Below, piece by piece: positions 48,620-50,926 of a stretch of DNA of 64,000 nt (position 1 is the stretch's first letter; each line of letters opens with the position of its first letter). The DNA comes from Escherichia phage HY01. The notes beneath the pieces are model-generated. The model was not told the origin of the DNA, searched no databases, and worked only from the letters and a program-made list of their open reading frames with translations. A program made the translations under genes and the position numbers. The stretch is taken from the sequence record NC_027349.1. The stretch is one strand, 5' to 3'.

Positions 48620-48647
48620 AAAATTTTAAAATAAAAAAGGGGACCTC
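48620..48647 (-). terminator. Terminator after gene 32
   Basis: GGGGACCC-TAGA-GGTCCCC hairpin followed by TTTTTTATTTT on minus strand. Confidence 0.65.
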
Positions 48648-48679
48648 TAGGGTCCCCAATTAATTAGTAATATAATCTA

Positions 48680-49588
48680 TTAAAGGTCATTCAAAAGGTC
48701 ATCCAGGTCCGTGTCATCAGCACTAGATGAACTGCCAGAGCTTGAGCTCATAAAATCATCTTCAGTTTTTGTTTTGAAGTCATCAACATTAAATGCATCC
48801 AAATCATCAGCAACTTTATCGGCTTTCTTAGCGGCAGTTGCTGCGGCACCACCCATAGCAGCAGTTCCCATAACTTGACTGAACTTAGTGCTCAGTTCTT
48901 CAAACGATTTGAATTTATCTTTAGAAGTCATTTCAGAAAGGTCAACCATTTGTTCGAACAGTTCTTTCTGGAAAGATTCATCATCAATGTTTGGAATCGC
49001 AGATTGATTCAGGAATTTAGATTCGTCGTAGTTACTAAAACCAGAAACTTGTTTAACTTTCAGTACAAAGTTAGCACCTTCCCACGGACAAGTTACATCA
49101 ACCGGAGTTTCACCCATTTCAACATCAACTGCAATCATTGCATTGATTTTATCCCAGATTTTCTTACCGAAACGGTATTTAAATACTTTACCTTCATTTT
49201 CTGGAGCAGCTGGGTCTTTTACTACAAGAATGTTAGCCCAGTAAGAAGTTTTACGTTTAACAAGACCGTACTCTTTATTGTCAGTATTATACAAATCATT
49301 TTTACTGATGTACTGACATACTGGGCAAGAATCGTAATCACCGTAGGTAGATGAGCATGTTTCGATATACCATTTACCATTTTTCTTGAAACCGTGATTT
49401 ACAAGAAGTGCGAATGGTGCTTGTTCATCATTTTTAGACGGAAGAAAACGAATTACTGCTTGACCGTTACCCGCATTATCGAGTTTCAGTTTCCACTCGC
49501 CTTTATCTTCAGAAGAAAAACCACCTTTATTTCCAGCCAGTTTAGCCATTTGTGCAGCGAGTTCAGCAGTAGATTTACGTTTAAACAT
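48680..49588 (-). CDS. 32: Single-stranded DNA-binding protein gp32 (302 aa)
   Basis: Sequence as T4 gp32; acidic C-terminal tail; autoregulatory leader upstream. Confidence 0.95.
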
Positions 49589-49625
49589 TTTTATTTCCTT
49601 TTTAATTTAATTAACAGTTGGTGCT
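49589..49625 (-). promoter_or_regulatory. gene 32 autoregulatory translational operator (AU-rich unstructured leader)
   Basis: Minus-strand TTAATTAAATTAAAAAGGAAATAAA immediately before ATG, as in T4 gene 32 leader. Confidence 0.6.
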
Positions 49626-49638
49626 ATGACACTTTACC

Positions 49639-50271
49639 TCATAGCTGGCATAATTCACAATACTCTGGGTCTTCGAGAGGTATCCAACCTGAGTTGAAAT
49701 ACTTTACCATCGATTTAGCAGTTGTATCAGTTATATTTATATTACCTTTAACTCTTCGCCATCCAGGAGTTTTACCGTACAGATTAGAGGATAATAATAA
49801 CACATAATTCTCGTAAGCAATATGAGATAATTTCCAAGACTCTATATTAGCTCGTGATGTTTTCCAAGGTCTAAAATCGTCACGGTTCATATAATTAGCC
49901 AATCTCATATGCTCTCTAACTTCCGGGTCTTTGGCTGGATGAGTTTCACCACTCACACCAAATCCGCCGCCAGCATATACCAGATTAAAATAGTCTGGAT
50001 TATCTCTGGCATTTACTTCAAGTTGGTATTTTCGCTCTGCTTCAATAACATCCAAATCATCATCAATTTGAATTATTTTAACGCTCGGTTTTTGAAGCAT
50101 TACCGCATTTAAAAATCTTTTTTGTTTACACGAACTCCAGTATTCCTTTCCGGAAGAGTCATATATTATTCCATTCTCAAATGAGCAATTTAATTTACTG
50201 CCGATATAGTAGTACGGCGGAGTCTTATTTTTGACACGGTCTTCAAATGTAAACCAATATACTATATTCAT
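49639..50271 (-). CDS. GIY-YIG homing endonuclease, Seg-like (210 aa)
   Basis: N-terminal IVY...YYIGS and ERKYQLEVNARDN resembling I-TevI/Seg catalytic motifs; sits where T4 segG lies. Confidence 0.6.
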   Translation of the reverse strand: MNIVYWFTFEDRVKNKTPPYYYIGSKLNCSFENGIIYDSSGKEYWSSCKQKRFLNAVMLQKPSVKIIQIDDDLDVIEAERKYQLEVNARDNPDYFNLVYAGGGFGVSGETHPAKDPEVREHMRLANYMNRDDFRPWKTSRANIESWKLSHIAYENYVLLLSSNLYGKTPGWRRVKGNINITDTTAKSMVKYFNSGWIPLEDPEYCELCQL

Positions 50272-50272
50272 A

Positions 50273-50926
50273 TTAATACTTACAGGATTTCACAGTTTCA
50301 ATGAAAACACTTTTAGCTTTCTGTGAATCAATATTTAAAATTTTTCTATAAGCTTTTAACTTTATAGAATAATTATTCCAGACTAAATTATCAGTCTGTT
50401 CATCATGTTTATCAATTATATTTAAAAACGAATCAAGCAAGATAAACGTCTCAAACGAAATTATATTCGATTGAAGTAGTTTAAAAATATAACTTGATTG
50501 AACTTTTGGATTATACTCAAAGATTTCTTTAAAAGCAGAAACTTCAACTTTTTTACTAAAATAATAAATGTTGCGAATATCTTCTTCAAACTTAAATTTA
50601 ATTTGCTTTAAGCGTCCGATATATTCACGATAAAACACAAGTGCATCAGCGTCAGAGATGTCACCAATCCAAGCATCTTGGTTAGCAACAAGATTGCTTA
50701 TAAAGATTAAAGCAAGTTCCTTTAATTTATATTTTTCTGATAACTTCTGGAAAAAATACTTATCCCTTCGCTTTTGATAAGCGGCATCAGACACCCGCAT
50801 GCACCAATTATACTTAATTACATCATACTTTCCATTCATATGTTGTTTTATCATTAAGTATAATTTATAAACTGATTTACCATCAATGTATCTTTCACCA
50901 CCAGCAGGCATGCGGAGTTTAATCAT
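50273..50926 (-). CDS. 59: gp59 helicase loader (217 aa)
   Basis: Sequence as T4 gp59. Confidence 0.85.
   Translation of the reverse strand: MIKLRMPAGGERYIDGKSVYKLYLMIKQHMNGKYDVIKYNWCMRVSDAAYQKRRDKYFFQKLSEKYKLKELALIFISNLVANQDAWIGDISDADALVFYREYIGRLKQIKFKFEEDIRNIYYFSKKVEVSAFKEIFEYNPKVQSSYIFKLLQSNIISFETFILLDSFLNIIDKHDEQTDNLVWNNYSIKLKAYRKILNIDSQKAKSVFIETVKSCKY

Follow-up and report, generated by a model that had tools for sequence, protein, structure and literature searches.

Background

It is known that phage T4 carries the gene for a 210-aa protein, SegG, between genes 59 and 32. As cited in PMC2330249 and PMC2988022, Liu et al. (2003) described SegG as an endonuclease that makes site-specific double-strand cuts, and the quotations of this study in PMC535899, PMC2330249, and PMC2988022 state that T4 SegG cleaves gene 32 of T2, starts gene conversion, and explains the local marker exclusion. 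The promoter of segG lies within the 3' part of the preceding gene, and the middle and late promoters of gene 32 sit in segG (review, PMC2988022). The T4 gene 32 operator, including gp32 binding and translational repression, has likewise been described (PMC535899, PMC3014915); its pseudoknot is placed 67 nucleotides upstream (PMC3014915) and overlaps segG (PMC535899), and RNase E processing takes place at −71 (PMC3014915). SegG, its role in gene 32 marker exclusion, and the pseudoknot overlap are all already known from T4, in descriptions that date from 1988 to 2004. Since everything essential is found in this T4 literature, the locus described here is a known and ordinary finding, which adds little beyond annotation. 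A further system for comparison is the intron-encoded I-TevI, the prototype GIY-YIG homing endonuclease, represented by its catalytic domain (PDB 1ln0).

We analyzed a stretch of 64,000 nucleotides of Escherichia phage HY01 (NC_027349.1), referred to as the window, whose numbering is used throughout. The features of the locus are collected in Table 1.

Table 1. Features of the segG–gene 32 locus of HY01 (positions in the window).
Feature	Position	Strand	Basis or remark
Gene 59 (helicase loader), upstream neighbor of segG	50273..50926	minus	ORF list, T4 annotation
Middle-promoter consensus GCTT-N14-TATAAT, 3' end of gene 59	50415..50438	minus	read from sequence
segG CDS	49639..50271	minus	210 aa + TGA stop; ORF list
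N-terminal GIY-YIG nuclease domain, ~aa 1–100	49972..50271	minus	
Putative middle promoter in segG: MotA-box-like AATGCTTCA, 12 nt, −10 element TAAAAT	50075..50101	minus	pattern match only
C-terminal all-helical domain, ~aa 116–210	49642..49926	minus	presumed DNA-binding/target-recognition module
Late-promoter consensus TATAAATA in segG, 146 nt upstream of gene 32 AUG	49734..49741	minus	exact match
Candidate RNase E processing site in segG, just 5' of pseudoknot	49652..49656 (~49654)	minus	homology only
Gene 32 mRNA H-type pseudoknot, T4 type, 28 nt	49623..49650	minus	identical to T4, stems pair
segG stop codon TGA	49641-49639	minus	
Unstructured A+U-rich operator part	49589..49622	minus	UUAAA/UAAA repeats, Shine-Dalgarno GGA at 49598-49596
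Gene 32, gp32 single-stranded DNA-binding protein, 302 aa	48680..49588	minus	ORF list, T4 + PEC04 annotation
Gene 32 codon 77, strongest segG-associated gene 32 marker	49358..49360	minus	

Identity and Neighborhood of the Endonuclease Gene

The ORF upstream of gene 32 is almost certainly segG (formerly ORF 32.1), a free-standing GIY-YIG homing endonuclease gene in the canonical 59–32 slot of Tequatrovirus. An earlier note on this DNA had reported a 210-aa ORF with the motifs IVY, YYIGS, and ERKYQLEVNARDN, which are indeed present at residues 3–5, 21–25, and 79–91, and had pointed to T4 SegG as the counterpart in the same slot. The alignment that it proposed revealed 209 of 210 residues to be identical to T4 SegG (AAD42455.1), without gaps and with L57V as the sole change. 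PHROG 7504, 'homing endonuclease', was matched over positions 1–210 of 210 (E 1.9e-133). Taken together, the identity and the end-to-end match identify the gene as segG itself and not merely as a 'Seg-like' gene, so that the gene identification and functional guess of the note were right and even understated, with the enzymatic activity of the HY01 protein predicted from this resemblance. At the nucleotide level, the gene differs from that of T4 at 12 positions, 11 of them synonymous.

The neighborhood agrees with this assignment. On the minus strand, gene 59 is preceded by rnh, dsbA, and gene 33, and gene 32 is followed by frd.3-like ORFs; the annotation of the matching region in T4, rnh-dsbA-33-59-SegG-32-frd.3, shows the same gene order. 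The segG ATG follows 1 nt past the stop codon of gene 59, and 50 intergenic bases (49589–49638) separate the segG stop codon from the gene 32 ATG (49588); the '51 nt' of the earlier note are the same distance, counted from end to start. The gene has the full length, the high identity to T4 SegG, the 59–32 slot, and the orientation expected of a SegG orthologue. A megablast search with the 901 nt from 49500 to 50400 returned 499 phage records, every one T4-like (Tequatrovirus) of enterobacteria; over this region PEC04 is 100% and T4 96.9% identical. One record with 99.4–99.5% identity, OR584013.1, belongs to Pseudomonas phage PsgM02F (host Pseudomonas coronafaciens), a host assignment that is unusual for a T4-type coliphage.

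Regarding annotation, the PEC04 record (KR233165.1, 1801–2262, corresponding to window 49639–50100) gives an endonuclease of 153 aa that starts from the internal Met58. The start at Met58 leaves out more than half of the GIY-YIG domain, even though the reading frame is open over all 210 aa. That the GenBank product is truncated and lacks most of the nuclease domain is a modest practical point for annotation.

In LHE83 (Escherichia) and in KP179 and ATCCa (both Klebsiella), a 'homing endonuclease' with ~66–70% nucleotide identity is found between genes 59 and 32, which indicates that diverged relatives also occupy this slot. The divergent genes of KP179 and LHE83, and the existence of homologues with swapped C-terminal domains, would be in line with a distinct Seg-like endonuclease that has another target and merely shares the slot with segG. 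For HY01 we consider this exceedingly improbable: the single difference from T4 SegG is the conservative L57V, the C-terminal domain is identical, and an identity of 209/210 refutes a distinct enzyme. We therefore treat the gene as segG in the following.

Domain Architecture of SegG and Selection on the Protein

The earlier note had made its reading depend on a GIY-YIG fold in structure prediction, and the GIY-YIG alpha/beta fold was indeed found for the N-terminal domain, by fold search only and not by sequence-profile methods. Pfam and NCBIfam, searched with SegG up to an E-value of 10, returned no match; a single-protein phmmer search against PDB sequences gave nothing informative, and a profile of 27 homologues recovered no GIY-YIG chain from the PDB. 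In an hhalign comparison with T4 I-TevI, only the C-terminal parts were aligned, with a probability of 1.7%, and the SegE_GIY-YIG model was touched by just one of the 27 homologues (E 0.035). As Pfam and NCBIfam miss the GIY-YIG domain, automated pipelines call SegG 'hypothetical', and this blind spot of the curated models is a practical point for annotation.

The motif residues are nevertheless conserved. In the alignment of 27 homologues, Y5 is nearly invariant, and Y22, I23, G24, E79, and N96 do not vary at all, even in homologues with as little as 28% identity, which supplies the GIY tyrosine, the YIG triplet, the catalytic glutamate, and the structural asparagine. Judged from order and spacing, these residues would be equivalent to Y6, Y17, E75, and N90 of I-TevI. 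For the catalytic arginine there are several candidate positions, comprising an invariant K26, a nearly invariant R12, which lies before the YIG motif, and a variable R52. Compared to the I-TevI catalytic domain, SegG shows 17% identity and no detectable sequence-profile similarity, and its GIY-to-YIG spacer is longer and holds an inserted helix. Furthermore, the C-terminal domains differ, SegG is free-standing whereas I-TevI is intron-encoded, and SegG cuts at a site hundreds of bp away from where its gene is inserted (PMC2988022).

A flexible linker of low confidence (aa 101–115) separates the nuclease domain from the helical C-terminal domain, which presumably recognizes DNA. Some homologues combine a SegG-like N-terminal nuclease (44–56% identity over about half of the protein) with unrelated C-terminal regions that contain CxxC motifs, NUMOD1/NUMOD3, or an I-TevI-type DNA-binding domain. 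The swapped C-termini suggest that phage homing endonucleases have exchanged domains.

Among the nine segG-positive phages compared, the gene is 633 nt long and uninterrupted in every case. Seventeen variable codons are synonymous-only and three are amino-acid-changing, spread along the whole gene, which points to purifying selection on the SegG protein. A decaying pseudogene was rejected in view of the identity and the substitution pattern.

The Gene 32 Pseudoknot and Operator

It was suspected in the earlier note that the ORF leaves little room for the pseudoknot upstream of gene 32. As a plain minimum free energy (MFE) fold cannot represent a pseudoknot, we checked both stems by hand and complemented this by pair counting. 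Contrary to the suspicion, the pseudoknot is present and intact and shares sequence with the 3' end of segG; what holds of the concern is an overlap of 12 nt. All 28 nt are the same as in T4 by alignment. Stem 1 (UGCC/GGUA, 4 bp) and stem 2 (GCUAUGA/UCAUAGC, 7 bp) are connected by loop 1 (A) and loop 2 (AAGUG), and all 11 pairs are canonical or G-U. With its first 12 nt, TGC CAG CTA TGA, the pseudoknot takes in the final three sense codons of segG plus its stop codon, an overlap that is shared with T4. Relative to the AUG, the structure lies at −62 to −35 here and at −67 to −40 in T4.

Comparative data support the pairing. In seven phages of three lineages (T4-type, T2-type AR1, and Mosigvirus-type), all ten pairs that can be aligned are paired throughout (100%), so that the T2-type and Mosigvirus-type operators keep all of them. 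We observed a compensatory change from U-A to C-G in stem 2 and a G-U/A-U change in stem 1; sliding the 3' partners by one to three columns as a control left only 20–57% paired. Rfam, searched at a permissive E-value, returned chance-level hits only (DUF2815 RNA, 19 bits against a gathering score of 41) and no gene 32 pseudoknot match.

The second part of the operator is likewise retained, as the earlier note had stated: its AU-rich sequence TTAATTAAATTAAAAAGGAAATAAA was found at 49614–49590, and the A/U-rich tract from 49589 to 49622 is unpaired in the MFE fold. The HY01 leader thereby shows the composition of the T4 operator, i.e., a two-stem H-type pseudoknot and an adjacent A/U-rich repeat tract over the Shine-Dalgarno sequence, with the pseudoknot sequence of T4 and the tract and Shine-Dalgarno sequence downstream of it. 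As both parts of the operator are intact, translational autoregulation by gp32 should work as in T4.

A 200-nt stretch spanning the segG stop codon differs from T4 at two places only, by a synonymous C>T at 49657 and by the absence of one AATTA unit. The missing 5 nt correspond to one AAUUA/UUAAA repeat and are located 3' of the pseudoknot (spacer of 50 nt compared to 55 nt in T4). The short form of the leader is also present in AR1 and the other segG-less loci with a readable leader, nine in all, with 1-nt differences in C2-3 and IsfPm2; the segG-less Ozark contained no search anchor. HY01 thus differs from both T4 and T2 operators in joining a T4-type pseudoknot to the repeat number of the T2-type (segG-less) form. 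Leaders with at least 99% identity to that of the window occur in twelve records. Across segG-positive phages, the spacer from stop codon to ATG amounts to 49 nt (Sso113, SH_GT), 50 nt (the HY01 window and PEC04), 54 nt (OE5505, RB3, ES19), 55 nt (T4), 59 nt (e11/2), or 64 nt (Ptacy1496), and the number of AAUUA/UUAAA units ranges from two to five. The spacer length is therefore a common repeat-number polymorphism and no sign of encroachment.

These data also bear on the scenario implied by the earlier note, in which encroachment of the endonuclease gene on the leader abolishes or weakens the pseudoknot and makes gp32 autoregulation unlike that of T4. The spacer shorter than in T4 and the 12-nt overlap between ORF and structure speak for it. 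However, the pseudoknot is base-for-base that of T4, which has the same overlap (PMC535899), the deleted repeat lies 3' of it in a form that the examined segG-less phages carry as well, and spacers vary from 49 to 64 nt even among phages with segG. The structural claim is refuted by the intact pseudoknot, and we regard the scenario as a whole as highly improbable compared to a T4-like operator.

Linkage of segG Presence to Gene 32 Markers

Whether segG is present varies among close relatives: the megablast query was covered to at least 80% in 139 of ~499, and in the sampled rows of the others, gene 59 runs directly into the leader of gene 32. As IMG/VR, scanned for an exact pattern of the leader, yielded two loci only, too few for a census, we used GenBank phage records. 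The resulting set for association analysis comprises 19 Tequatrovirus loci, nine with and ten without segG.

The type of the pseudoknot was strictly linked to segG. The T4-type (UGCC...GGUA, loop AAGUG) was found in 9/9 segG-positive loci, and the T2-type (UGACC...GGUCA, loop UACAUCG) in 9/9 readable segG-negative loci, which indicates that the 5' arm and loop 2 move together with segG. Within gene 32, segG-associated sites were identified at nt 52–66 (0.78–0.89), nt 111 (0.70), nt 230–231 (0.90), and nt 246 (0.67), and from nt 264 onward every site was below 0.4, i.e., without segG association in the 19 loci. The strongest marker, codon 77 (nt 230–231), is ACA (Thr) in all nine segG-positive loci and AAT or AAC (Asn) in nine of the ten segG-negative loci (Fisher exact p = 1.2e-4, a value that ignores relatedness and the ~90 variable sites). 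It adjoins Cys78 of gp32 (Cys77 in T4 numbering), which we take to be a zinc ligand. Measured from the 3' junction of the inserted segG, the linkage block ends at a distance of ~309–327 bp. This is suggestively close to the cleavage-to-insertion distance of 332 bp that Liu and co-workers are said to have reported in 2003.

Gene 32 of HY01 itself combines T4-like, AR1-like, and private sites in a fine-scale mosaic. In this patchwork, segG and the pseudoknot are of the T4-type, the operator and gene 32 nt 52–66 are of the segG-less type, and nt 111–231 are again of the T4-type. The first ~70 nt of gene 32 thus carry non-T4 alleles, and because of the segG-minus-type alleles in operator and nt 52–66, the HY01 flank is not a simple T4-type tract. 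On the protein level, gp32 has A18 and Y82 instead of N18 and H81 in T4 (window 49523–49537 and 49343–49364), and its length of 302 aa compared to 301 aa in T4 results from an extra Gly codon, GGT, at 49525–49523.

The linkage of segG to 5' markers of gene 32 fits co-conversion driven by homing. During co-infection, SegG would cut gene 32 of a segG-less phage a few hundred bp away from the site where segG is inserted, and the break would be repaired from the segG-positive genome. This repair would convert gene 32 markers, and less often segG, to the donor type, i.e., marker exclusion. As SegG of HY01 is 99.5% identical to the T4 protein, the same mechanism is expected here; the enzymatic activity and the target site in HY01 are predicted from this identity. 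Owing to the small sample and the uncorrected relatedness, the linkage is only suggestive of co-conversion. We further consider it conceivable, though rather doubtful, that the pseudoknot together with the gene 32 alleles up to nt ~231–246 represents a population footprint of segG, that Thr/Asn77 could be part of what determines SegG recognition or immunity, and that the repeat number may tune gp32 autoregulation. Such a population-level footprint in 19 isolates may not have been explicitly published, and the linkage block over the first ~250 nt of gene 32 is a modest practical point.

Promoters, RNA Processing, and Termination

Several elements that act on gene 32 are located within segG, which houses the late promoter, the RNase E site, the 5' arm of the pseudoknot, and probably the middle promoter; use of the promoters and of the RNase E site is predicted from motifs and homology. 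The late-promoter consensus is also embedded in T4 segG, and the site homologous to it is an annotated late promoter in phage SA20RB. The position of the MotA-box-like site agrees with the statement that the gene 32 middle promoter sits in segG (PMC2988022). The middle-promoter consensus in gene 59, whose homologue in SA20RB is annotated as a middle promoter, is likely the promoter of segG. Due to the 5-nt deletion, the equivalent of the T4 RNase E site at −71 is found at −66 here, and the pseudoknot starts at −62 instead of −67. The flank of the RNase E site is identical to T4 apart from the synonymous C>T at 49657.

The presence of these elements raises the alternative that the ORF encodes a Seg remnant without enzymatic activity, kept only for the gene 32 cis elements listed above. 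Embedded promoters favor the keeping of such genes (PMC2988022), and both a late-promoter consensus and a pseudoknot arm lie inside this ORF; moreover, Pfam and NCBIfam find no GIY-YIG match, the spacing between GIY and YIG is unusual, and several candidates exist for the catalytic arginine. On the other hand, the ORF has its full length in 9/9 phages, 17 variable codons are synonymous-only compared to three amino-acid-changing ones, and Y5, YIG, E79, and N96 are (nearly) invariant even in homologues at 31–40% identity. In addition, the 99.5%-identical T4 protein was reported to be active (Liu et al. 2003, as quoted in PMC2330249 and PMC2988022), and the neighboring gene 32 markers track the presence of segG in natural isolates. 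A dead remnant is therefore very unlikely, if slightly less so than the other alternatives considered above, and a functional segG that also carries gene 32 elements is the reading we prefer.

Downstream of gene 32, a strong hairpin resembling an intrinsic terminator (GGGGACC...GGTCCCC followed by a T run; 48639–48657, minus strand) lies 23 nt past the stop codon, and the annotations of OE5505 and e11/2 place a terminator at the equivalent site.
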